A stretch of 61,395 nt of DNA from an uncultured Bacilli bacterium (GCA_944332525.1 CALVKD010000002.1:1-61395); one strand, 5' to 3'. Positions 2,774-40,327 are shown, counted from the stretch's first letter. Notes: generated by a model not told the origin, from the sequence alone. Numbers and translations: made by a program.

Positions 2774-2982
2774 TTTAACCTCCATCAATCTAGTAAAATA
2801 GTAAAATTATTTAAACTAATTTTAAATAAAAAACAAATAATTTAATTTTTTAATATTGTTAAAATATGAATTAATATTTTAATTTATTCGCGTGATAGCG
2901 CTTACAGCTGAAATAATGATAAAAGCAACTAAAATACCTTATAACTTTGCATAAACTCGTTTACAATAACATTGTTGAAAAC

Positions 2983-3127
2983 GGTCATATAAATTCAAAG
3001 ATATGGTTTGAAAGTTTCTACCTGGTTACCGTAAATAACCAGACTATGCCAATTCAATCAATTTTTTTGGTTTTCAACATGATGGAATTGGTTTTAGAAA
3101 TAAGGCGATGTTTCTAAAACTTTTTTT
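2983..3127 (+). promoter_or_regulatory. purine riboswitch, guanine/hypoxanthine class (C74), with terminator expression platform
   Basis: The aptamer at 2983-3050 reads UAUAAAUUCAAAGAUAUGGUUUGAAAGUUUCUACCUGGUUACCGUAAAUAACCAGACUAUG. It aligns almost base-for-base with the B. subtilis xpt guanine aptamer. J3/1 is AC, the specificity C. It sits upstream of a purine permease. Confidence 0.92.
3091..3127 (+). terminator. riboswitch-controlled intrinsic terminator
   Basis: A 10-bp stem pairs GTTTTAGAAA (3091-3100) with TTTCTAAAAC (3111-3120). It is followed by TTTTTTT (3121-3127). Confidence 0.85.
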
Positions 3128-3168: not shown

Positions 3169-4611
3169 ATGAGTTTTTCAGAATCATCATTCGCTAAAAG
3201 GCTCGATTCATTCTTCCACATCAGTGAAAGAGGATCGAAATTCTCCACCGAAATTATCGGCGGACTCACCACATTTATGGCGATGGCCTACATTCTTATG
3301 ACTAATGCTGGTATGTTCCAAGACATTCCAAATGCAACAGCATCATACAATGCCATCTACATCGCTACTGCAATCTCGGCGATTATCGGAACCGTCTTGA
3401 TTGGTCTCTTATCAAAGTTACCTCTCGCTCAAGCGTCAGGTATGGGCTTAAATGCCTTCTTCGTCTATACCGTTTGTGCAGGCTTAGGATTTACTTATGC
3501 TAATGCCTTAGTCATGGTTCTTATCGACGGCATCATTTTTATCATTTTAACCGTTACTGGTCTAAGAGAAATAATCTTTGCTTCAATTCCTGACTGCGTT
3601 AGAATTGCTATTCCTGCAGGTATTGGTTTATTCATCGCTTTCCTCGGCTTACAAAATGCTGGTATCGTCGTCGCTGATGCTTCTACAAAAGTTAATCTCG
3701 TTTCGATGAACTTCTTAAACGGCGCAACTTGGGGTGAAGTAATGCCTATCTTAGTTACATTCTTCACTATTATCATTATCGCCATCCTCTCGCATAAAGG
3801 ATTAAAAGGCGCTGTCATCATCGGTATTCTCGGTGGTGCTATTCTCTACTACATCTTAATGCTCACCGTACCTGGTGGATATGACGGATTAATTTCTAGC
3901 GGAACTTTCCAATTAGAAAATCCATTTAACGCTTTTACTGACTGGGGTACTGAATCTGTCGGTAAAGTCTTTACTGATGGCTTCAATTTCTCAGCTTGGA
4001 TTGAAGCAAATGGTGCAGGTAACTTCGTCTTAACCTTAGTTACAACTTCTATCGCTTTCTGCTTAGTTGATATGTTCGATACTTTAGGTACATTATATGG
4101 TGCTTGTGCCCGTGGTAACTTATTAACTGAAACAGGAGATATTCCTAATATTAAAGGTGCAATGCTCGCAGATGCTATTGCCACTACTACAGGTGCTATC
4201 TGCGGTACTTCAACTGTTACTACTTTCGTTGAATCCTCATCCGGTATTGCCGCTGGAGCAAGAACAGGCTTATCAAGTATGTTCACTGCTTTATGCTTCT
4301 TCGTAGCAATGTTCTTAGCTCCTATCGCTAAGCTCATTCCTACATGCGCAACTGCAGCCTGCCTTATCTATATCGGCGTCTTGATGATGAACTGCGTTAA
4401 GAACCTCGATTGGCTCCAACCAGCTGTCGCTGTTCCTTCATTCCTCACCATCGCTATGATGCCATTTACCTACTCTATTTCCTATGGTATTGCCTTTGGT
4501 TTAATTTCTTACTTATTCATCAATTTATTCTCAGGCAAGATCAAAGAAATCAAGATTGGTACTTGGGTCATCACAATCTTATTCGCCGTCATGTTCTTCA
4601 TGACTCACTAA
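3169..4611 (+). CDS. NCS2/AzgA-family purine permease (guanine/hypoxanthine permease, PbuG/PbuO-like)
   Basis: This 480-aa polytopic protein has an N-terminus (FKLxERGSxxxTEIxGGxTTFxxMAYI) and overall pattern typical of AzgA-type permeases. It is controlled by the guanine riboswitch. Confidence 0.88.
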   Translation: MSFSESSFAKRLDSFFHISERGSKFSTEIIGGLTTFMAMAYILMTNAGMFQDIPNATASYNAIYIATAISAIIGTVLIGLLSKLPLAQASGMGLNAFFVYTVCAGLGFTYANALVMVLIDGIIFIILTVTGLREIIFASIPDCVRIAIPAGIGLFIAFLGLQNAGIVVADASTKVNLVSMNFLNGATWGEVMPILVTFFTIIIIAILSHKGLKGAVIIGILGGAILYYILMLTVPGGYDGLISSGTFQLENPFNAFTDWGTESVGKVFTDGFNFSAWIEANGAGNFVLTLVTTSIAFCLVDMFDTLGTLYGACARGNLLTETGDIPNIKGAMLADAIATTTGAICGTSTVTTFVESSSGIAAGARTGLSSMFTALCFFVAMFLAPIAKLIPTCATAACLIYIGVLMMNCVKNLDWLQPAVAVPSFLTIAMMPFTYSISYGIAFGLISYLFINLFSGKIKEIKIGTWVITILFAVMFFMTH

Positions 4612-7384: not shown

Positions 7385-9334
7385 CTATTTCACCATCCAA
7401 TAATTTGCAAATTCGTGAGTGTCAAAATAATTAGAAGTCATGATTAAATCAAGATGAGCTTGTTTAGAAAGAATTTTTCTAGTTTCACTTAGAAACTGAT
7501 TTTTATCTTGACCTGACTTGAATTTACGATAAATTGTCTCTCCATCTAAAGATAAATAAAATTCATTAAAGCAAACCGATAATTCATCAGAATAAAAGGA
7601 ATAGACACCATCTTCACTCTTATTAAAAAGCGATTCACCGAGATGAAATGTTGGATTGTAGTCCACATTTAATAAATCTAGCATAGTCGGTAATAAATCG
7701 TAAGGGGAGGAAAAGATTTCGTAGCAATTTGTACCATATTTACTGAAATATGTTTCTTCTAACAAGGGATTTTTCAAAAATAAAGTTGTCGTATAGATAT
7801 CGCTATAGAGTTTATCTTCGCGGTTAGCTAAAAGCTGATTAAGGCATTCACCATCATTTCCCGGATAATAAATATCGTGATCACCAAACAAAATAAATAA
7901 TGTGTCATCCATTTTTCCGGCTTCTTCAAAGCTTTGAAAAAGATTTCCTAAAGCTTTATCAAAATCCATTGCGCTCATCATATAAATATCGATACAAGAA
8001 GCATTAATCGGGCTTGTTTCCTCTAATGGATTTATAAAGAGATCGTTTTCTTTTGCATAATTTAATTTTTCACCATATTTTTGATATAATTCATCAGCGT
8101 TCTTACGGTCTGAATACGGTCCATGCATGGATAGAGATGTATAAAACGCATAAAATGGCTCATCGCTATTTAAGAGAACATCGCTCACCAATGGTAATGT
8201 ATCGCAATCAGAAATATAATCGCCGTCCCAAGACCAAATCGGATAATCTTCACCATATAAATCTTCATGAAAATAACAGTGTTCAAAACCTAATTTAGGC
8301 ATTAATATCTCGCGGTCGTAAATATCTCTGTCCATACCTGGTAGTGAACTAGTATCATGAAAATAATATGTTTCATAATCATCTTTTAATATTTCTGTAG
8401 CAGAATAAGGCAAATTATAACTATAGCGTTCAGGTAAAATACCTATTGATGGAGCAGATCCGGTTATGCCGATAAATTCTGTCATATTAGTCTTATTTTT
8501 AGAATAATTGTTCATGCAATAAATCGCATCTTTCGTTAATTGATACATATTCGGAGTTAAATATTCATTAATCATGAAATCATCACCTGTTTCAATCATA
8601 ATTGTAAAAACATTTTTTCCTTCAAGTAATCCGGTAAAATCATTTTCACGTTGTTTTTCCTGAGTAAAAAAATCTTTCATCGATTCTTCTGACGGCAATT
8701 TTTCTCCAAAAAGCAAATAGCTTATCTCTTGTAAATAGTAAGAATATGTTCCGTACTCAGAATAATTATGGCTCCGAAGAACAGATATAATCGAATCCCC
8801 ATAAAAATCATTAAGAACATTTTTAATTGTCCCAAAAGATAAAGTATAAACGGCCGCCATGGTCATAACCGGCAGCAAGGCTAGAGATTTACTTAATTTC
8901 GGATAATTCTTCTTTCGAAAAAAGAAGTTAATTAAAATTAAGCAAATAATGCTAAGAACATATAGTGATACAATTACTGCGATAAAAGTAAAATCGAAGT
9001 AATCAGGATTATTGATGACGCTCATACCTTGAGAGGCAATAGCTAAATTATAGAGAGAAAAAATTGCTCCGAAATTTTTATAAAATGTTCCGTTAGCCAC
9101 AACTAAAACGGCAGTTACTAAATTCAAAACGCTTAAATATACGATATCTAAATAACTTTTTTTGAAAAAGAAGATGACAGAGGCAAAAGCAAGCGATAAA
9201 AGAAAATCTAGAATAAAATAAGATGGCAAAAATAATCCGAACATCTTTTCAAAAATAATTACTTGAAATATTAGAAAAAACACTAAATAACAAAGTATTT
9301 CAGCAAATTTTTTGACATTTAAAAACGCTTTCAT
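7385..9334 (-). CDS. LTA-synthase-family (LtaS-like sulfatase/phosphoglycerol transferase) membrane protein, paralog 1
   Basis: It has five or so N-terminal TM helices and an extracellular alkaline-phosphatase-superfamily domain. The LtaS-like metal and nucleophile motifs are IMIETGDD, KNKTNMTEF and FGDHD. Confidence 0.75.
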   Translation of the reverse strand: MKAFLNVKKFAEILCYLVFFLIFQVIIFEKMFGLFLPSYFILDFLLSLAFASVIFFFKKSYLDIVYLSVLNLVTAVLVVANGTFYKNFGAIFSLYNLAIASQGMSVINNPDYFDFTFIAVIVSLYVLSIICLILINFFFRKKNYPKLSKSLALLPVMTMAAVYTLSFGTIKNVLNDFYGDSIISVLRSHNYSEYGTYSYYLQEISYLLFGEKLPSEESMKDFFTQEKQRENDFTGLLEGKNVFTIMIETGDDFMINEYLTPNMYQLTKDAIYCMNNYSKNKTNMTEFIGITGSAPSIGILPERYSYNLPYSATEILKDDYETYYFHDTSSLPGMDRDIYDREILMPKLGFEHCYFHEDLYGEDYPIWSWDGDYISDCDTLPLVSDVLLNSDEPFYAFYTSLSMHGPYSDRKNADELYQKYGEKLNYAKENDLFINPLEETSPINASCIDIYMMSAMDFDKALGNLFQSFEEAGKMDDTLFILFGDHDIYYPGNDGECLNQLLANREDKLYSDIYTTTLFLKNPLLEETYFSKYGTNCYEIFSSPYDLLPTMLDLLNVDYNPTFHLGESLFNKSEDGVYSFYSDELSVCFNEFYLSLDGETIYRKFKSGQDKNQFLSETRKILSKQAHLDLIMTSNYFDTHEFANYWMVK

Positions 9335-29710: not shown

Positions 29711-30328
29711 CTAAAGAAGTTCTTTCTTTAAATAAATTGAATCTTGTTCAGTAATCTGTCTAATAACTTTGCATGGATTACCGCATGCCAATGAATGTGG
29801 AGGGATGCTTTTAGTAACAACGCTTCCCGCCCCAATAATAGAGCCCTCGCCTATTGTTACTCCTCCAACAATCGTAACATTACCGCAAATCCAGCAGTTA
29901 TCACCGATATGAATTTCTTTGCCATATTCTTTATCGGTTACACGATGTTTTTCATTAATATAATAAGCTCTTTCCTGAGGTAAAAAAGGATGCATAGGAG
30001 TTAATAAAGAAACATTAGGACCGCAGAAAACATCATTTCCAATAATGACTTTAGCAACATCTAGACATGTAAAATTAAAATTAGCGTAGAAATTCTTTCC
30101 AGTAAAAATATTTATTCCGTAATCGAAAAAAATTGGTCCTTGAAGATAGGTATTTTCTCCGCGATTAGGCATCAAAACATCAAGAATTTCTTTTCTTTTC
30201 GTATCTTCTTCATCATATGTATGATTATAATCAAGGCAATAATGATGCGCTCTTGTTCTTAACAAAAGCAATTCATCATCATTAGGATCATAAATCTTAT
30301 TTGCTAACATCTTTTCCTTTTCAGTCAT
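29711..30328 (-). CDS. maa: sugar O-acetyltransferase (maltose/galactoside O-acetyltransferase family, left-handed beta-helix)
   Basis: It has the Mac-type N-terminus (MLANKIYDPNDDELLLLRTRAH) and hexapeptide repeats (IGDNCWICGNVTIVGGVTIGEGSIIGAGSVV). Confidence 0.85.
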   Translation of the reverse strand: MTEKEKMLANKIYDPNDDELLLLRTRAHHYCLDYNHTYDEEDTKRKEILDVLMPNRGENTYLQGPIFFDYGINIFTGKNFYANFNFTCLDVAKVIIGNDVFCGPNVSLLTPMHPFLPQERAYYINEKHRVTDKEYGKEIHIGDNCWICGNVTIVGGVTIGEGSIIGAGSVVTKSIPPHSLACGNPCKVIRQITEQDSIYLKKELL

Positions 30329-30478
30329 AATAAACCTCTTATATATTTTTATCTTATAACAAAATAAATTATAAATAAAGTTAAGAACATAAACTTTCTA
30401 ACCGGACAAAACATGTCCTCACATAATTAAGTTTTTATCGATTATAATAACTTTACTAAGAAACCCTTAGTAAACAAA

Positions 30479-31034
30479 TATCGTTCTTTGAAAATTAGTT
30501 TGTTACACCTCGGTGCAGGCATCTTGTGCGATGGCCGAGGCGTGGCCTTGATAATCTCTTCTGCGGGATACTGCAGATGTAGGTGAGACCTTGAGGAAAC
30601 AAAAAGGTATCCGCATTAACAAATGCGCTGAGGTCAATGTCGCTGAATGTTGTTCGATGTAAATGTCTTCTCATCAGGCGCGATAAGAGGCTCCATAGTG
30701 ATATGTCCCGCGTCAAGAAGCAAGCCTGAGAAACTTGTTTCTTCGCTCTCAACTAAGCGTGCGACTTGATGCTAAGTAATTAGCTATAACTGTTTGAGAA
30801 GGATTGAGTAGCAGAATGTCCATGTTTGCAAATTAAGGAATTTGTATGCGTATAGCTGAAGCTCTGTGAAAGTTGGATGATGATTTAGTTCATCCCGTTG
30901 TCCGGTTTATCCCATTTTGGAAGTTTAAAGGTAGCTCCTTTAGATTCAGCCCAACGTGAACGTGCATGAATAACAGATTACAATAAATTCAGTAGGGTGA
31001 AGATCCGTAACATTCTAATTTTCAGGGAACGATA
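30479..31034 (+). ncRNA. large (about 555 nt) highly structured non-coding RNA of unassigned family (ROOL-like in size and context; family not verified)
   Basis: This protein-free region is clearly more GC-rich than its flanks. An 18-bp closing helix pairs 30479-30496 with 31017-31034 and includes 3 G-U pairs. There are many internal helices, for example 30508-30513/30535-30540, 30563-30571/30607-30614, 30715-30724/30734-30743, 30875-30880/30890-30895 and 30926-30931/30937-30942. A TATAAT box lies at 30445-30450 upstream and an intrinsic terminator lies immediately downstream. Confidence 0.6.
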
Positions 31035-31038
31035 AATT

Positions 31039-31063
31039 AGTTACCTTAATGGTAACTTTTTTT
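31039..31063 (+). terminator. intrinsic terminator ending the structured RNA
   Basis: A 7-bp stem pairs AGTTACC (31039-31045) with GGTAACT (31051-31057). The loop is TTAAT and TTTTTTT follows. Confidence 0.8.
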
Positions 31064-31078
31064 ATGAAAAAAATCCTC

Positions 31079-31270
31079 TCAAGAGAGGATTTCTATAATT
31101 GATACATTAAATACTTCACTTATTCTTTTAATCACCGCGAGAGAAGAAGTGCCAATGGTTTCGAAGCGGCGAATTTGTCGTTCACTATAGCCGAGAAGAT
31201 TACCCATTTCAACTTGAGTGATCTGGTTGATTAAACGAATATTTTTTATATTTTGTGCTATTTTTTCCAT
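31079..31270 (-). CDS. XRE-family HTH transcriptional regulator (small, stand-alone)
   Basis: It has the HTH_3 pattern IKNIRLINQITQVEMGNLLGYSERQIRRFE. I chose the ATG at 31270, which is 7 nt after AGGAGGG. The ORF-track start is a TTG two codons upstream. Confidence 0.8.
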   Translation of the reverse strand: MEKIAQNIKNIRLINQITQVEMGNLLGYSERQIRRFETIGTSSLAVIKRISEVFNVSIIEILS

Positions 31271-31487
31271 CTTCAATCCCTCCTTTTTTAGGACAAAAAA
31301 ACAAAAGAAAAAATTCTTTTTAGAAATATTAATATGTTCTTTAGTCAGTGAATGAATTGTACCATATAAAATAAATATTGTAAAGATATTTTTTTACTTT
31401 TTTACATTGGTAATTGTACTAAGATTGTTAAGTTTTATAAACAAATTAATTAATTATTAAACTAATAAAAAAGAGTCTCCTTTTTAA

Positions 31488-32863
31488 TTACTTAACGTTA
31501 GCGGCTAAAACACTTGCATATTCAAGTAACAGCAAATATTTTTCAGTATTACTCATTATGCCTAGATCAGCAGTTACTTTTTCTATTCCATTGGCAACAG
31601 TATTATTTGAAAATTCAACTCGAGTTTTTAAGAACTCTAATTTTGTTTCAGTAGATAACGTTGTATCATTTACCCAGCCCTCATGTAAACTAATAAATCC
31701 TAAAGCTTTTTTCACATTATTATTTCTAATAATCAACTTACCTGTTCCAAGATTAACTGCACTAGGTTTATCCAATGTAATTTGGATTGCATTATCTTTT
31801 CTTTCATTTTTATTAGTTTCAATTACACTTAAGTAAAATTCGTTATTTTCAATGATTCTATCTCTATCATTTCCCGGCATCATAGTGTTAATTGATTTTG
31901 TAGAATTCATTATTTTATTATTTCTAATTTCATATGAAATATCAGGCGCTGTAGCGGTAATAGCATTGTTATCCTTGATATTATAGAATTGGCAACCATC
32001 AACTACGTAATGTGCTCCACCATTTAATGTTAAAGTACAATTAGCAAAATAAACATTTTTAATAATAACATTATATTCTTCAGTATAGTTTAAATTAATT
32101 CCACCACTTCTATTATCTTTATTATAATAGTTGGAAGCATAATATTTATTTTCAATTGTTATTGTATTTCCAGATTGTTCTATATGATTGCTTGGCACTA
32201 CAAATGAAATGTCTGTAAAAAATTTAGAATTTTCAGAATCACTATCGATAGCGACACTAGTAGAATCACCAACACCTTTAGTTGTAGTTTCAGGTACTAT
32301 ATATGGTCCATTGATCAAATTTAATTTAGTAATATTTTCAAGATATGCTTCATCTTCCAATTCAAACAAATTATTATTTAAATCAAAAGTGTGTTCAGCA
32401 CTAGAAGTCTTAGCTAATGATGACTTTAATGTTACTAGGCTTAATAATGCATAATTGTATACTCCAGTTTGTAATCTTCTATCATCTGGATATACTGCCC
32501 ATAATTCTACGTCACTTGTATAATTAGCTGGGAATTCAATAGTTCCAGAATCTCTGTCTAATAATACAGTAGACACATTCTTTCTATCATAAGCAAACAC
32601 ATATGATTTCGAACTTGTTTTAAAATGATTAGAATTAATACCATTTTCCTCGATTAAAGTTACAAGTTTAGGCAATGTAATATCATCATCTAAAGTATGT
32701 TCAGCTTTTAATAAGATATTATATTGAGTGCATAGTTGTTCGTCTACAGATTTATTTGCCTTCTCTGTGAATGACAAACCGATACTGTGGCTAAAATAGC
32801 TAAAATAGCGATAACCACCAAAAGTTCTACAAGAGTAAAACCTTTTCTTCTGTTAGCTTTCAT
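31488..32863 (-). pseudogene. prepilin-type N-terminal cleavage/methylation domain protein with parallel beta-helix body, interrupted by a 1-nt frameshift
   Basis: An ATG at 32861-32863 (AGGAGG RBS) encodes MKANRRKGFTLVELLVVIAILAILATVS..., a class III signal peptide. This reading frame stops after 39 codons. The 429-aa ORF (31488-32777) continues in the -1 frame with ...SFTEKANKSVDEQL, a typical post-helix pilin sequence. It then carries PbH1-like repeats. Confidence 0.7.
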
Positions 32864-33051
32864 AACAAAAAATTCCTCCTTTTAAAGCAGTTTCATTGTA
32901 TTTACTCATTATTTTTATTGTCAATATAATTGCATAAAAGTATATTAAATTATATTTTTATCTATCTATTTTCTTACTTTATTATATATTAATATATATT
33001 ATTATAAGATACCATTTTAGAAATTTATCTATATATTATTATATTTATCTA

Positions 33052-34623: not shown

Positions 34624-35181
34624 ATGAGAAAAAGTTTAGGTGCTAAACCTTATTTATTTCCAATGCCAGTTTTAATGATTGCTACTTATAATGAATACGG
34701 TAGCGTCGACTGCATGAATGCTGCTTGGGGAGGCACAGCTGATTATGAAAAAATTGCTATCTGTCTCGATAGCAGTCATAAAACTACGGATAATATCATC
34801 AGAAATAAAGAATTCACAGTTTCTATCGGCGTTAAGGAATATGTAACAGAATGCGATTATTTAGGTATCGTCTCGGGAAAGCAAGTTAAAGACAAATTTG
34901 CTAAATCTGGATTTCATGCCATTGATAGTGAAAAAGTTCACGCTCCGACAATTAAAGAATTACCTTTGACTTTAGAATGCACACTTGACAGAATCACTGA
35001 AGAAGAAGGATTAATGATTGGTAATATCATTAATGTTACGGTTGATGATTCAATTTTAACCGATGGCAAAATCGACATGAAAAAATTTCATGTCATCACC
35101 TTTGATCAAGCAAATAATACTTATATTGAATTAGGTGAAAAAGTAGCCGATGCTTTTAAAATCGGATTGAAACTTAAATAA
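34624..35181 (+). CDS. flavin reductase-like (FMN-binding split-barrel) protein
   Basis: It has the pattern PYLFPMPVLMIATYNEYGSVDCMNAAWGG. I chose the ATG at 34624, which is preceded by GGAGGA. An extended -10 TGATATAAT lies at 34583-34591. Confidence 0.75.
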   Translation: MRKSLGAKPYLFPMPVLMIATYNEYGSVDCMNAAWGGTADYEKIAICLDSSHKTTDNIIRNKEFTVSIGVKEYVTECDYLGIVSGKQVKDKFAKSGFHAIDSEKVHAPTIKELPLTLECTLDRITEEEGLMIGNIINVTVDDSILTDGKIDMKKFHVITFDQANNTYIELGEKVADAFKIGLKLK

Positions 35182-36542
35182 TGCCTATGAACAACATTAG
35201 ATATGATGTCTTTATTTCTTTTAAAAATACCGATAAAGACAATAATCCTACCGAAGATAGCCAAATCGCAGCAATTCTTTATAAAGAATTAGAGCAGCGT
35301 GGCATCAAAGCTTTTTTTAGCAATGTCAGATTATTTCAATTTGGCGAAGCCGCCTATAAAGAGGCCATTGAAAAAGCCCTTGATGATAGCAAGGTTCTCG
35401 TAGCAATTGCAACAAGCGATGATTTTTTAAATAGTAAGTGGGTTAAATATGAACGCGAATCCTTCCATGAAGATATTTTAGCTGGGCGAAAAGAACATGC
35501 TTATATCGTTCCTTATATAAAAAATATCAACGTAAATGCTTTGCCTCGTTCACTAAGAGGCTATGAAACATTTCAAATTAATAATAATGTTGAAGAAGTG
35601 GTGATGTTTATTATCGCTTGCCTCAAAAAAAATAACGAATACAAAGAAAAAAAATTTGAAAAGTCATTAACTACCGGTAAAAATGTCTCGACCTACGACC
35701 CTACTAAAGGCAAAGAGTTGAAACGATTAAAAATTCAAAGTGATAATACCCGTCCGGCCGATATGCTTGCAATCGAATATTGCCTTAAAAATTTACCGCA
35801 CAAAGATAAAATATATATTCTTGATGCAGGATGCGCCTATGGATATGTAACTTCTGATCGATTTTCCAAAATCGAAAATGCCTTTACTTTAGGTGTAGAT
35901 ATTTCAAATAAATGCTTAGAATACGCACGAGAACATAATAATTCCGATAATATAGTTTATGAATATCTTGATTTAGAAAACGAAGATTTTGATGATAATC
36001 TCACTTCCTTAATGGAAAAGTATGGCATTGATAAATTTGATATTATCTTTTCTTCATTGGTTATCCATCACTTAAAAAACCCAAACCGTTTTTTAAGAAA
36101 AATTCGGAAATATCTTTCTAAGGATGGTTTTATTATTTTAAGGGGTTCCGATGACGGATCCATGGTTAGCTGCGGAGATGACGGATTAATTAACAAAATC
36201 ATCGATATGCACGTCAAAACAGATGGTATCTCTGACCGTTTTAACGGAAGAAAACTCTATGGTCAGCTAATTGCCTCGGGATATAAAAATATCAAAATGA
36301 TGTCTTATATTAAGGATACGTCGTCTCTTGATATAGACGAAAAAGAAAATGTGTTTCTTGAAAGATTTGCTTACCGTAAAAATTATCTTCAAAACGCTTT
36401 AGAAAAAGATCCGTATAATATTGAAAAAAAGAACGCTTTAGAAGCTATGGTCTATGCGCTTGATATGCTTGAAAACAAATTTTCTGAAGAATCTTTTTGG
36501 TATAGCGAAATTGATTTTGTCGCTGTAGCTAAAAGAGTTTAA
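35181..36542 (+). CDS. TIR domain fused to class I SAM-dependent methyltransferase
   Basis: Residues about 7-140 form a TIR domain (YDVFISFKNTD...VLVAIATSDDFLNSKWVKYE, putative catalytic E91 at 35451-35453). Residues about 200-340 form the methyltransferase (motif I ILDAGCAYGY, then FDIIFSSLVIHHL, then GFIILRGSDDG). The start overlaps the preceding stop (TAATG). Confidence 0.75.
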   Translation: MPMNNIRYDVFISFKNTDKDNNPTEDSQIAAILYKELEQRGIKAFFSNVRLFQFGEAAYKEAIEKALDDSKVLVAIATSDDFLNSKWVKYERESFHEDILAGRKEHAYIVPYIKNINVNALPRSLRGYETFQINNNVEEVVMFIIACLKKNNEYKEKKFEKSLTTGKNVSTYDPTKGKELKRLKIQSDNTRPADMLAIEYCLKNLPHKDKIYILDAGCAYGYVTSDRFSKIENAFTLGVDISNKCLEYAREHNNSDNIVYEYLDLENEDFDDNLTSLMEKYGIDKFDIIFSSLVIHHLKNPNRFLRKIRKYLSKDGFIILRGSDDGSMVSCGDDGLINKIIDMHVKTDGISDRFNGRKLYGQLIASGYKNIKMMSYIKDTSSLDIDEKENVFLERFAYRKNYLQNALEKDPYNIEKKNALEAMVYALDMLENKFSEESFWYSEIDFVAVAKRV

Positions 36543-36554
36543 AAGAGGTGACAT

Positions 36555-39431
36555 ATGCAGATAGTTATTTTAATTTTAGCAATTTTGATACCGATAATCT
36601 TTATTGTCTTTTTCACGTTTAAAAACACTAAATATAAAACTTATTGCAACAATACATTTTTACTTGTCACATTATTTTTATTATCATTCTTTATTTTCTT
36701 TTTATCAGGCCTAATTAACCATGAAGATATTGGCGATTTAATCTTCTCACCGATTTTTAAAGCGATTAGCATGTTTGCTTTAGGTAACAGTGTTGAGGAT
36801 TTAAATTATACTTTCCAAGGCTATCCATGGATGTACGATACATATAAGGTTTTAATTATTTATATAGATCAATTAATATGTTTGTTATCCGTTTCATTAG
36901 TTATCCTTACTACCTTCATTAAAACCTTACGCGCGAAGATGTTTAACTTTGGAAAAAGCATTAAGTCTCTCCCGTATATCTTTGATTTAAGAAATAAGAA
37001 AAGATGCGTAAAAAACGTCGTTTATACCGATTTACCTTTTGACGATATCGATTATTTTTTAAAGAAGCTTAAGAAAATTGACGGAATGGTTTTAAAGGTT
37101 GTCGTTTTGCTTTCTTCAACGAAAACTGATAGGGCTGAACATTTAACCGATATCTTAAAAATTAACGGCTATGATGTCAGCAATGAATATTTATCGGTAA
37201 CTTCATTAAGAAAAATGATTTTTGCTCCTAACGGCAAGGTTAACGTTTATTCATTATTTTATCGAGATGAAGACAACATTGAATTTGCAAAAATTGCTTT
37301 AAAACTCTGTAATAGCAAAGCGATGAAAAGAAAAATTTCTAAGCAGCTTTTAAATTTTTATGTTAGCTATCAAGATGAATCATATAATAGCAAGCTCGAC
37401 TTTTCTAAAGAAAGCAATGGTTGCATCCAACTCGTCAGCGAATACGATTGGGCTGCGACTAAATTTGTTTTCTATAATCCTTTGACGAGAATTCTTGATT
37501 TAGGAACATTAAAAGAAGATAAATATGCTTTTTTAAAGAAAATAGCTAATCCACCTCAGCTCCATGTTCATTTCTTCGGCTTTGGTAATATTTCTCGTAG
37601 TTTATTAAACAAAATGTTCCCAAATTATCAACTGCCTTATAAAGATAAAAAAGTTATTTATCATATTTTAGATACTGAAGGCAAAAATCTCTGTTCGTCG
37701 TATCTTTCGCAGTTTGATGCTTTCAACAGCTTTTTTAAAAACAAAGAAGAATATCTTGAGCAGAGAAGTTTTGCCGATGCTTTTATTGGATATGATATTG
37801 ATTTAAATAAAGAAGATCAGATTAGAAAATACATCACTGATGTTATTTTGCCGTCATTAAAAGATAACCAGCAGCACATGATAATTATTGCTTTAGGTGC
37901 CTCATTTATCAATCTTACCTTAGCGATGAATGTCCGTCGAATCATCAAAAACTATTCATCAGCATTTAATATTGATTTAAAAGCTAAATCATTTAAGAAA
38001 TCTTTAATTGTTTATCCATATATCAAAGAGAGCAACGCCTTTATGGCAAACCCTCTTTACTATGGCAGCTTTATTAATGAAATAATGTCTAAGCGCGCGA
38101 AGGATACTATTCCTTCAACAAAAGAAATTGTAAACATACTTGCAAAAACTAACAATCATGGTCATGGTGATCACTTATTTGACTATGGAAAAGATTATGA
38201 ATCGTCTCGACTTTATGTTTTTGATGTTCAAGCAGATGATGTTACATTAAAAGAATGCTTTGCCAAGAAAGAAGATTATCATCTTTTTCAAAAGACTTAT
38301 AAAAATCTTAATCCTTTAAATTTCCTTAAGCATTTAAGGCGTGCAACCTATATTTTAGAATCTATTCCTATTGTCGCTTTTGGACGCGGGGGATATCTTC
38401 GCGATGAGCTCTCGGATCATATCCGCGATTTAGCAGCTATGGAAAACTTCTCTTATATGCCAAAAAGCGATATTCAAAAAATTAAAGAAAGCTACGAGAA
38501 AAAGCATATTAAAATATCCGACTACCAAATCGCCCTTCAGCTTTGGAATAATTCATTAAACCATTATTTGCAAATGACTAATATCGGCTCAATCTTATCA
38601 TTACCTTATAAACTCGGATTATTCGGCTATAAGTTTAAGATGAGCGAAAATTTAAAAGAAAAGGATAACTTGTCCTTGCATAATCAAGAAGTTATAGAAT
38701 CAATCAATTATTCTTTACGTCAGCCATTTAATATTAACAAAGACACTGAAAGCAAAGATCTTCAATTATCCTTGACAAAAAAAGATTTGAAACCTATCTT
38801 TTCAGAAAAATTTCTATCGACTTATCAAGGCGAAACAATTACTTATAATTTATTAAGAAGTCATTTTCTAAAGGTTTATAAAAGTGAATATCTCACTTTT
38901 AAAAAGAATATTGACAAATTTAAAGAAAACAATCAAGGCGATATCTCATTATTTACCGATTTGTACGCCTTGACATATGACTTAAACAGAATTATTAATC
39001 CATATGCTTTAATTATCCGTAACATTGAACATAATCGTTGGTATGTATTAAATGCCGAAGCAGGAATCGTTCCTTTAACGAAAGAAGAAATTGTATCCGG
39101 AATGAAAAAAAGTCCAGACGGCCTACGCCATCGCTGCATGACCAGTAATGAAGGACTCAATGAATTAGCCAAACTAACCATTCGCTTCAAACTTAGCGAA
39201 AAGGAAACCGATCAAAACAAAGGTAAGGTTGATGAATTAATAAAATTTGCATCTTTAGAAGAATTATTACATCATATTGAAACTTCGCCTAGCAATGTAT
39301 TAAAGGATATCTATAAACTCGTCTATTATAATGATATCTCATCATTGACTTCATTAAATGAAAAATTAAGTGTCGGAAACAATCAAAAAGTTATTTATTA
39401 TTTCAAAAATAAAGGTGGAATCAAACTATGA
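36555..39431 (+). CDS. 958-aa membrane protein of unknown function (4 N-terminal TM helices, Rossmann-like cytoplasmic region, C-terminal EHxRW motif)
   Basis: It has an AGAGGTG RBS. The TM helices lie in residues 1-130. A glycine loop VHFFGFGNISRS lies at about 37573-37600. The C-terminal motif NIEHNRWYV...LRHRCMTSNEGLNEL lies at about 39021-39140. I could not assign a confident family. Confidence 0.7.
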   Translation: MQIVILILAILIPIIFIVFFTFKNTKYKTYCNNTFLLVTLFLLSFFIFFLSGLINHEDIGDLIFSPIFKAISMFALGNSVEDLNYTFQGYPWMYDTYKVLIIYIDQLICLLSVSLVILTTFIKTLRAKMFNFGKSIKSLPYIFDLRNKKRCVKNVVYTDLPFDDIDYFLKKLKKIDGMVLKVVVLLSSTKTDRAEHLTDILKINGYDVSNEYLSVTSLRKMIFAPNGKVNVYSLFYRDEDNIEFAKIALKLCNSKAMKRKISKQLLNFYVSYQDESYNSKLDFSKESNGCIQLVSEYDWAATKFVFYNPLTRILDLGTLKEDKYAFLKKIANPPQLHVHFFGFGNISRSLLNKMFPNYQLPYKDKKVIYHILDTEGKNLCSSYLSQFDAFNSFFKNKEEYLEQRSFADAFIGYDIDLNKEDQIRKYITDVILPSLKDNQQHMIIIALGASFINLTLAMNVRRIIKNYSSAFNIDLKAKSFKKSLIVYPYIKESNAFMANPLYYGSFINEIMSKRAKDTIPSTKEIVNILAKTNNHGHGDHLFDYGKDYESSRLYVFDVQADDVTLKECFAKKEDYHLFQKTYKNLNPLNFLKHLRRATYILESIPIVAFGRGGYLRDELSDHIRDLAAMENFSYMPKSDIQKIKESYEKKHIKISDYQIALQLWNNSLNHYLQMTNIGSILSLPYKLGLFGYKFKMSENLKEKDNLSLHNQEVIESINYSLRQPFNINKDTESKDLQLSLTKKDLKPIFSEKFLSTYQGETITYNLLRSHFLKVYKSEYLTFKKNIDKFKENNQGDISLFTDLYALTYDLNRIINPYALIIRNIEHNRWYVLNAEAGIVPLTKEEIVSGMKKSPDGLRHRCMTSNEGLNELAKLTIRFKLSEKETDQNKGKVDELIKFASLEELLHHIETSPSNVLKDIYKLVYYNDISSLTSLNEKLSVGNNQKVIYYFKNKGGIKL

Positions 39432-40327
39432 TTTGTCAGAGAGAAATTCTTTTTGCTCAAGAAGTTCTAAGAAGAATTGCGCAGCAAAAATTTAATATCT
39501 GCTTCATTGGAGAAACTGAGACAAACAAAGAATTATTTAAATATTTTTTATCCGCGAACCTCTGTCTTTTTCACGATGAAAAAGTATATTTTAATGGTAA
39601 AATGTATAAAGAAATAGTTGCTAAGTTAGAAAAGATTTCGACGCTTATTTTATTAAAATATCAAGAGATATCTTCATTAAATGAACTTCCTCAAGGAACT
39701 TATATTTTTTCAGGAGGTGAACATATCTTAGAAAATGAATATAGGTTTGTTATTTATGATACAAGCAACTTAAATCGTTATTTTTTAAAAGATTATGACG
39801 CTTTAATCCGATTAGATGACAGCATTCATGAAATAGTTAAAACAGTCTTAGATAGTAAAAGCAAAGATATTAAAGACTTACAAATTTTGTTACCAACAAA
39901 TCATAATTTAACAAACGATTATTCTTTCCATTATATTTTTTCCGATGTTCTTTATCTCTATGTAGAAAAGTATCTAAAAGCTACCTATCAAAAAAGTGAA
40001 TTTTCGCAGATGCTACAAAAGATTCTATCCTTATGCGGCGAAGAATTATATCTTTATATTTTTAATAATTATCTTAACGAATCGCCATTTGCTTTTTTAA
40101 GCGATATTGAACATCAAAGATGGATGATTAGAACGCTTCTTTATGATGCAGATGATATCTATGAAAGAAAAAGGCACCTATTTGTATCTTTCAAAGATTT
40201 ATATTTATCATTAACTAAGATTTCTAAAGAAACCATTGATTATTATCAAGATGATATCTTAATTTATGATTTTCTTGATGTAGTCGCCGCGGGAATTGTA
40301 TCTTTAAAAAATGATAACCTCATTTAA
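39428..40327 (+). CDS. 299-aa protein of unknown function sharing the EHxRW...RH motif with the upstream gene
   Basis: It overlaps the upstream gene (ATGA) and has an AAGGTGGA RBS. The motif DIEHQRWMIRT...KRHLFVSFKDL lies at about 40103-40200. Confidence 0.65.
   Translation: MICQREILFAQEVLRRIAQQKFNICFIGETETNKELFKYFLSANLCLFHDEKVYFNGKMYKEIVAKLEKISTLILLKYQEISSLNELPQGTYIFSGGEHILENEYRFVIYDTSNLNRYFLKDYDALIRLDDSIHEIVKTVLDSKSKDIKDLQILLPTNHNLTNDYSFHYIFSDVLYLYVEKYLKATYQKSEFSQMLQKILSLCGEELYLYIFNNYLNESPFAFLSDIEHQRWMIRTLLYDADDIYERKRHLFVSFKDLYLSLTKISKETIDYYQDDILIYDFLDVVAAGIVSLKNDNLI

Follow-up and report, generated by a model that had tools for sequence, protein, structure and literature searches.

The stretch of DNA that we analysed (61,395 nt from an uncultured Bacilli bacterium, hereafter the window, with positions counted from its first letter) contains, between maa and a small XRE-family gene, a 750-nt gap that is best explained as holding a stand-alone chromosomal gene for ROOL RNA (Rfam RF03087), a reading that we hold with a probability of roughly 0.9. 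Searching the whole window against Rfam with cmscan at gathering thresholds placed ROOL at 30485-31025 on the plus strand with 193.6 bits (gathering score 99.1; E 4.5e-42), and the match ran over model positions 1-574 of 574 and was not truncated. An E-value-mode search of 30300-31300 returned the identical match. The whole-window matches at gathering score were ROOL, a purine riboswitch and a tRNA, with no others. Within 30300-31300, other Rfam families gave just three weak matches of chance level at E up to 1, all over the terminators, and the covariance models of GOLLD, OLE, raiA, RNase P and the group II intron found no match at gathering score in the window. A sequence-only reading of this region had proposed a large ornate non-coding RNA on the plus strand, most likely ROOL, and had named a comparison with Rfam as a check. 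That comparison returned full-length ROOL at about twice the gathering score with no rival family, and the proposal is backed as well by the covariation, the purifying selection and the absence of any conserved open reading frame, all described below. The alternative offered at the same time, a new large RNA class, found no support.

ROOL is a known RNA family (Weinberg et al., 2017, PMC5737381) that has been studied by cryo-EM (PMC12286853, PMC12990946), and the locus adds to it a divergent-subfamily copy in an atypical stand-alone context. At 556 nt, compared with a family mean of 581 nt, the window RNA shares with the family the motifs GGGAUAC, UAUAAC, AGUAGC, CUGAA..GUGAAA.UU, GGUAGCUCC..UCAG and GUAGG..GAAG..CC, as well as a P1 stem enclosing the molecule, a variable linker, complementarity between L8 and J8/6 and a palindromic L18 loop. 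It differs in having its own promoter, leader hairpin and terminator, in lying outside a tRNA array or prophage, and in its association with an XRE gene and with a palindrome at the promoter. GOLLD resembles it as a large ornate RNA of bacteria or phages whose cages consist of RNA alone, and which has a variable internal linker, sometimes with a tRNA; however, it is unrelated in sequence and fold, is larger, forms 10- to 14-mers, and its model found no match here. The coordinates of the features discussed are collected in Table 1.

Table 1. Features of the ROOL locus and its surroundings, in window coordinates.
Feature	Position	Strand	Description
tRNA-Gln (CTG)	231-306	minus	only tRNA of the window
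maa	29711-30328	minus	gene flanking the gap on the left
Perfect palindrome GGACAAAACATGTCC	30404-30418		candidate XRE operator; adjoins the weak ROOL -35
Weak -35-equivalent TCACAT	30419-30424	plus	18-nt spacer
Alternative -35 hexamer CACATA	30420-30425	plus	17-nt spacer
-10 box TATAAT	30443-30448	plus	predicted ROOL promoter; ends 36 nt before the Rfam start
Leader hairpin	30452-30474	plus	UUUACUAAG / CUUAGUAAA, 9 bp; lies after the predicted start site and before P1
ROOL RNA with full P1	30479-31034	plus	RF03087 match covers 30485-31025
P1 5' strand	30479-30506	plus	pairs with 31007-31034
85-aa antisense ORF	30495-30752	minus	TTG start; no conservation
L8 loop UGAGA	30727-30731	plus	complementary to UCUCA 30747-30751
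J8/6 bases UCUCA	30747-30751	plus	partner of L8
Variable linker	30817-30861	plus	loop closed by 30811-16/30862-67
Hairpin loop UAGCU	30932-30936	plus	palindrome AGCU; assigned to L18
P1 3' strand	31007-31034	plus	same evidence as the 5' strand
Intrinsic terminator	31039-31064	plus	7-bp stem (31039-31057), 5-nt loop, seven U
XRE-gene terminator	31069-31094	minus	hairpin and U run, -11.7 kcal/mol
Small XRE-family HTH gene	31079-31276	minus	probable true start ATG 31270 (63 aa)

The region is richer in GC than its surroundings, as had been noticed from the sequence (0.40-0.43 over 30400-31000; most flanking windows have 0.23-0.30). For the plus strand, the folding energy is -182.2 kcal/mol (z -5.27), which none of 100 shuffles equalled, and the minus strand folds less well (z -2.81). 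The longest inverted repeat of the region pairs the two P1 strands over 28 nt with 86% Watson-Crick pairs, and forms a 26-bp stem made up of 20 bp, a 2x2 internal loop and 6 bp. A closing helix of 18 bp, 30479-30496/31017-31034, had been drawn by eye as enclosing the whole element; it is real, is present in the minimum-free-energy fold, and constitutes the outer part of ROOL P1. This helix overruns the ends of the Rfam model because the model takes in only the inner 16 bp of P1. The window P1 is 12 bp longer than that of the model, and long P1 stems proved to be general. Since de novo RNAalifold prediction on the MAFFT alignment did not recover the outer P1, owing to the variable length of P1 and its misalignment by MAFFT, P1 was assessed instead by duplex energies, which need no alignment, and by an ungapped comparison of anchored sequences. 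Across 13 ROOLs, cognate ends gave a mean duplex energy of -35.7 kcal/mol compared with -16.2 +/- 5.8 kcal/mol for non-cognate ends, and the cognate duplexes contained 25-32 contiguous bp in most ROOLs. In the anchored alignment, 159 of 234 cells were paired, a value that was not reached in any of 1000 partner permutations. These two results establish that a long P1 is general in ROOL; every homolog tested had one, with differing sequences. Covariation in P1 of env-120 has been published for pairs 1-659, 3-657 and onward.

Mapping of the Rfam model pairs to the window left 118 of 146 canonical, and some window helices may differ from the model, since the other 28 pairs are non-canonical. For the test of covariation, 10 subfamily ROOLs were aligned with MAFFT, unaided, and the Rfam structure and the extension of P1 were then placed on them; counts from MAFFT alignments of this kind are under-counts. 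In this alignment 72.1% of cells paired, compared with 38-47% when partners were slid, and 95 pairs had changed on both sides, with none of 500 shuffles reaching the observed values. De novo RNAalifold prediction on the same 10 sequences gave 110 pairs, and compensatory changes were present in 77. Two helices, 30657-65/30966-77 and 30913-22/30951-59, fitted poorly in the Rfam register, and RNAalifold found both in a shifted register. The multi-junction consensus structure of ROOL is thus backed by covariation in ten related ROOLs. Six local helices had also been drawn from the sequence, and five of them coincide with Rfam consensus helices. The sixth, 30563-71/30607-14, was rejected: it competes with the consensus hairpin that has the conserved GGGAUAC in its loop, and it lacks covariation, its paired fraction being equalled in 362 of 500 shuffles.

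We searched for relatives of the window RNA in several collections. A pattern built from ROOL motifs matched once in the window (0 expected) and in more than 120 IMG/VR viral contigs. Similarity detected by blastn between the window RNA and 97 viral ROOLs was confined to the conserved core, and phage and plasmid collections contained no blastn match to the region. Seven loci were found in a genome scan. A DNA pattern specific to the subfamily matched 6 contigs in a metagenome scan and 0 viral contigs, and Rfam detected full-length ROOL in all loci from the genome and metagenome scans. One relative, L123, is a MAG contig of an uncultured Bacilli bacterium that is ~95% identical to the window overall; another, L124, is a rumen Firmicutes MAG whose ROOL is ~70% identical to that of the window. 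The window and nine relatives scored 164-222 bits with the Rfam model, whereas the tRNA-array ROOLs tested scored 350-383 bits, and on account of this score of about half, the window ROOL belongs to a divergent subfamily.

Several ROOLs were found in association with tRNA or tmRNA-like genes. In L132, a tRNA-Arg (UCU) gene (7915-7988) lies inside the variable linker of the ROOL (7573-8159), and the viral ROOL L011 has a tRNA-Phe in its linker. Embedded tRNAs have been described for GOLLD; no mention of tRNAs embedded in ROOL was found in the literature searched. Genes resembling tmRNA adjoin ROOL in four phage or tRNA-array loci (L086, L115, L126 and L133), and a tRNA lies within a few hundred nt in 41 of the 97 viral ROOL regions.

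Upstream of the window RNA, the presence of a TATAAT box had been reported correctly, and its position was 2 nt off (30445-30450 instead of 30443-30448). The box has no good -35 element, and it was not reported by a consensus promoter scan. The best -35 hexamer, CACATA, matches TTGACA at 2 of 6 positions, and the equivalent hexamers are weak in other XRE-linked loci too. Seven of eight independent subfamily homologs have a sigma-70-type promoter (10-12 of 12 positions) with a -10 box ending 16-43 nt before the Rfam start. The leader hairpin folds at -7.7 kcal/mol (z -5.75), a small hairpin is seen by eye at the equivalent position of most subfamily homologs, and such a structure presumably stabilises the 5' end. 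At the other end, scanning and folding both recovered the strong intrinsic terminator that had been noted 4 nt past the closing helix; it folds at -8.4 kcal/mol, and the sole difference from L123 there is in its loop. The gene, which stands alone, is flanked by this TATAAT box on one side and by the terminator on the other.

The window ROOL is located outside a tRNA array and outside a prophage, two settings that are frequent in the family but do not define it. The sole tRNA of the window, and thus the nearest, is 30 kb from the ROOL, which does not form part of a tRNA array, and there are no phage structural genes among its neighbours, which are ordinary chromosomal genes. Copies of ROOL outside prophages are on record in the literature. 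Elsewhere in the window, a purine riboswitch aptamer (Rfam RF00167, 80.7 bits; 2965-3066, plus strand) lies upstream of a 480-aa ORF (3169-4611). A segment adjoining the XRE gene (31392-33021) is a strain-variable insertion, with ~29 nt in its place in L123, and the 429-aa ORF within it (31488-32777) had no match in Pfam, PHROG or PADLOC. Further along, a fusion of a TIR domain and a methyltransferase (35181-36542), with a weak match to PDC-S66 of PADLOC, is followed by proteins of 958 and 299 aa without a family match, and the stretch 35181-40327 may be a defence island.

Cryo-EM of the env-120, E. faecalis and L. salivarius ROOLs has shown that the RNA alone builds a hollow cage (PMC12286853, PMC12990946), made of eight chains or, for the L. 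salivarius ROOL, of six (PMC12990946). Kissing loops and A-minor contacts hold the solved cages together, and the variable linker is disordered in their interior (PMC12286853, PMC12990946). Two of these contacts can be examined in the sequence of the window RNA. The kissing contact between L8 and J8/6, which is intermolecular by cryo-EM and forms bridge B4 (PMC12286853), has its complementarity kept, at 4-6 Watson-Crick bp, in all 10 subfamily members. This complementarity occurs in three covarying versions (UGAGA/UCUCA, GGAA/UUCC and GGAUA/UAUCC), the Rfam consensus at this site being UGGCA/UGCCA. The self-pairing kissing loop L18 joins the half-shells as bridge B6 (PMC12286853). From the order of the stems and the env-120 positions (PMC12286853, Supplementary Table 3), we infer that the hairpin 30923-30946 is P18/L18, and its stem (30923-31/30937-46) is conserved with covariation. 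The variable linker, taken as the distance from AGUAGC to CUGAA as a proxy, measures 43 nt compared with a median of 51 nt (22-86) in the 97 viral ROOLs, and could not be aligned across the subfamily. By analogy with the solved ROOLs, the window RNA should form an RNA-only cage. A transcript of ~0.6 kb would fold into a flat multi-junction monomer, and monomers would assemble into a protein-free, dihedral, hexameric or octameric hollow cage through inter-subunit contacts that are kept in the sequence, namely UGAGA/UCUCA of L8/J8-6 and the palindromic AGCU of L18.

The stop codon of the XRE gene, at 31079, marks the right-hand end of the gap. The XRE protein matched Pfam HTH_3 (PF01381) with 25.1 bits against a cut-off of 23. 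All its matches to curated NCBIfam subfamilies were far below their cut-offs, and its only PDB match was the HTH domain of PezA (E 1e-7). Among small XRE/Cro-type repressors and HTH antitoxins, the nearest curated models are the RstR phage repressor and the N-terminal domain of PezA. The neighbour of ROOL is like such regulators in being a lone HTH_3 domain of 63-65 aa, and in the presence of a promoter-adjacent palindrome with a half-site spacing of 10 bp, typical of dimeric XRE regulators. It is unlike them in that its predicted target is the gene for a large structured RNA and not a lysis/lysogeny or toxin gene. The protein contains the motif LGYSERQ(I/Y)RRFE, and homologs 47-54% identical (E 2e-18 to 6e-20) are encoded in L124 and L134, in both cases directly upstream of ROOL and on the same strand; the 1.15 Mb of ROOL loci contained no further occurrence of the motif. 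A search with the single XRE sequence retrieved three near-identical proteins only, and a profile of three XRE genes retrieved 55 homologs. Nine contexts of XRE homologs were picked by protein identity alone, and their contigs were then scanned with Rfam. ROOL was present in six of the nine. In five of these (L136, L138/139, L140/141, L142 and L152/153) it lies 77-115 nt downstream of the XRE gene, and in L151 it is 1.7 kb downstream, with two inserted genes between. The XRE-linked ROOLs include the divergent type as well as a more canonical type (300-307 bits). A plasmid collection gave no match to the XRE protein or to an XRE-linked ROOL of the canonical type. A gene for a DUF2130 protein recurs just downstream of ROOL in L136, L138, L140 and L141, and L140 has three more palindromic boxes between the two.

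The palindrome GGACA-N5-TGTCC at 30404-30418 is the only site in the 61-kb window with no more than one mismatch to that pattern. In each of the nine XRE-linked loci, the Rfam start of ROOL is preceded at 51-81 nt by a palindrome of the form GGACA-N5-TG(T/A)CC. The box pattern turned up in just one of ~120 tRNA-array or viral ROOL loci. The distance from the end of the palindrome to the start of the -10 box (TATAAT or TAAAAT) is a constant 23-24 nt in the nine loci, with a weak -35-like hexamer in between. The half-sites are 10 bp apart from centre to centre and degenerate as GGWCA, and because of this spacing and degeneracy the box is better suited to an HTH protein dimer than to a hairpin in RNA. 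Reading the box as an RNA hairpin with one compensatory change was rejected, as it places an A-A clash in the stem in five loci; the fixed spacing to the -10 box also counts against it. A perfect complement of 10 nt between the promoter box and the ROOL interior (30400-30409/30898-30907) was likewise rejected, being unconserved in L124 and within chance expectation. The upstream region of the window XRE gene itself contains a half-site only.

The adjacency of the XRE gene to ROOL is probably not incidental, and these comparisons of sequence suggest that the XRE protein controls the ROOL promoter. We predict that the protein would bind GGACA-N5-TGTCC, at a position abutting the weak -35 element and centred near -43, where it could either activate transcription in the class-II manner or repress it. 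We tentatively propose, at not quite even odds, that ROOL is the regulated cargo of a dedicated two-gene module composed of the XRE gene, GGACA-N5-TGTCC and ROOL in gut and rumen genomes of the Bacilli type. Whereas the ROOL family itself is known, the link to an XRE gene and a palindrome is new; no paper linking the two was found in the literature searched, which did not include the primary cryo-EM papers of Wang et al. and Ling et al.

The claim of XRE control is limited by the gene order in the window, by the three XRE-homolog contexts in which the Rfam scan did not find ROOL, and by shared synteny. The window XRE gene is downstream of ROOL and convergent with it, and in eight other loci it is upstream on the same strand. 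A competing explanation, to which we give an appreciable but minority chance, is that the ROOL is real and constitutively expressed and that the XRE gene and the palindrome are not a regulatory pair, the box serving another factor, the divergent maa promoter, or as a structural hairpin or cruciform. The placement of the window XRE gene and the three contexts without ROOL speak for this explanation, as does the fact that small XRE genes are very common. In L134 (4262-4312), L136 (2735-2790), L138 (2738-2785) and L140 (2738-2790; all coordinates approximate), moreover, the palindrome is inside a long perfect inverted repeat, whose arms of 11-18 nt are wholly different between loci and covary, a pattern more like a hairpin than a protein site; these arms are absent in the window. 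Against a chance association, XRE-ROOL pairs are spread over five or more distinct gene neighbourhoods and involve two ROOL subtypes, although several of the XRE-positive loci share synteny and are not independent. The fixed distance between the box and the -10 element in nine loci also argues for a regulatory pair, and the GGWCA half-sites and the central A-A clash are easier to reconcile with a DNA site than with an RNA hairpin. ROOL keeps its box in L151 despite the two genes that separate ROOL from the XRE gene there, and in L147, which has an XRE gene and no ROOL, boxes are found both before and after the XRE gene, indicating that the box follows this gene.

Turning to the RNA itself, we compared the window with L123. 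The ROOLs are 99.1% identical (5 of 556 positions differ), whereas the flanking coding genes are 94.0% (maa) and 90.4% (XRE) identical. Two of the five differences are in the variable linker, one is at an unpaired position, and the two at paired positions keep pairing (G-U to A-U, and A-U to G-U); the change of A to G at 31034 retains the pair with U30479 as G-U. The window ROOL is thus under strong purifying selection as an RNA. This makes it very unlikely that the locus is a decaying, non-functional relic of an old prophage or tRNA island, an idea that could be entertained from an Rfam score half that of canonical ROOLs, the 28 non-canonical model pairs, the lack of a tRNA array or phage genes nearby and the strain-variable gene next door. 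The whole subfamily has similar scores and shows covariation, and the promoter, leader hairpin, terminator and kissing-loop complementarity of the window copy are intact.

The gap contains no credible ORF, as had been pointed out, the antisense ORF of 85 aa being the only sizeable one. No conserved open reading stretch was present among ten homologs, in which positions and frames vary, and the longest in L124 is 46 codons compared with 85 in the window. A cis-regulatory leader or riboswitch, or a small-protein gene such as the antisense ORF, for which the long intergenic region and the open stretch of 85 codons on the minus strand might speak, is extremely improbable, given that a terminator comes straight after the region and the neighbouring gene beyond it runs convergently, which leaves nothing downstream to regulate, that the open stretch is not conserved among the 10 homologs, and that the ROOL model is matched over its full length.

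ROOL is one of the few natural RNAs known to build a closed cage from RNA alone. That a host-chromosomal, stand-alone ROOL is under selection away from tRNA arrays and prophages speaks for an advantage to the host. As a working guess, the cage could sequester or encapsulate a macromolecule in a regulated manner, under a condition that is sensed via the XRE switch. An extra copy of ROOL is of modest interest, and the part of this locus that merits follow-up is the module of XRE gene, box and ROOL. If true, the module would imply that production of the cage is switched rather than constitutive, and it would give ROOL its first genetic handle, providing a regulator and, through the regulator, the inducing condition. 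An XRE regulator with a palindrome at a fixed position could in this way help to reveal when the ROOL cage is made.
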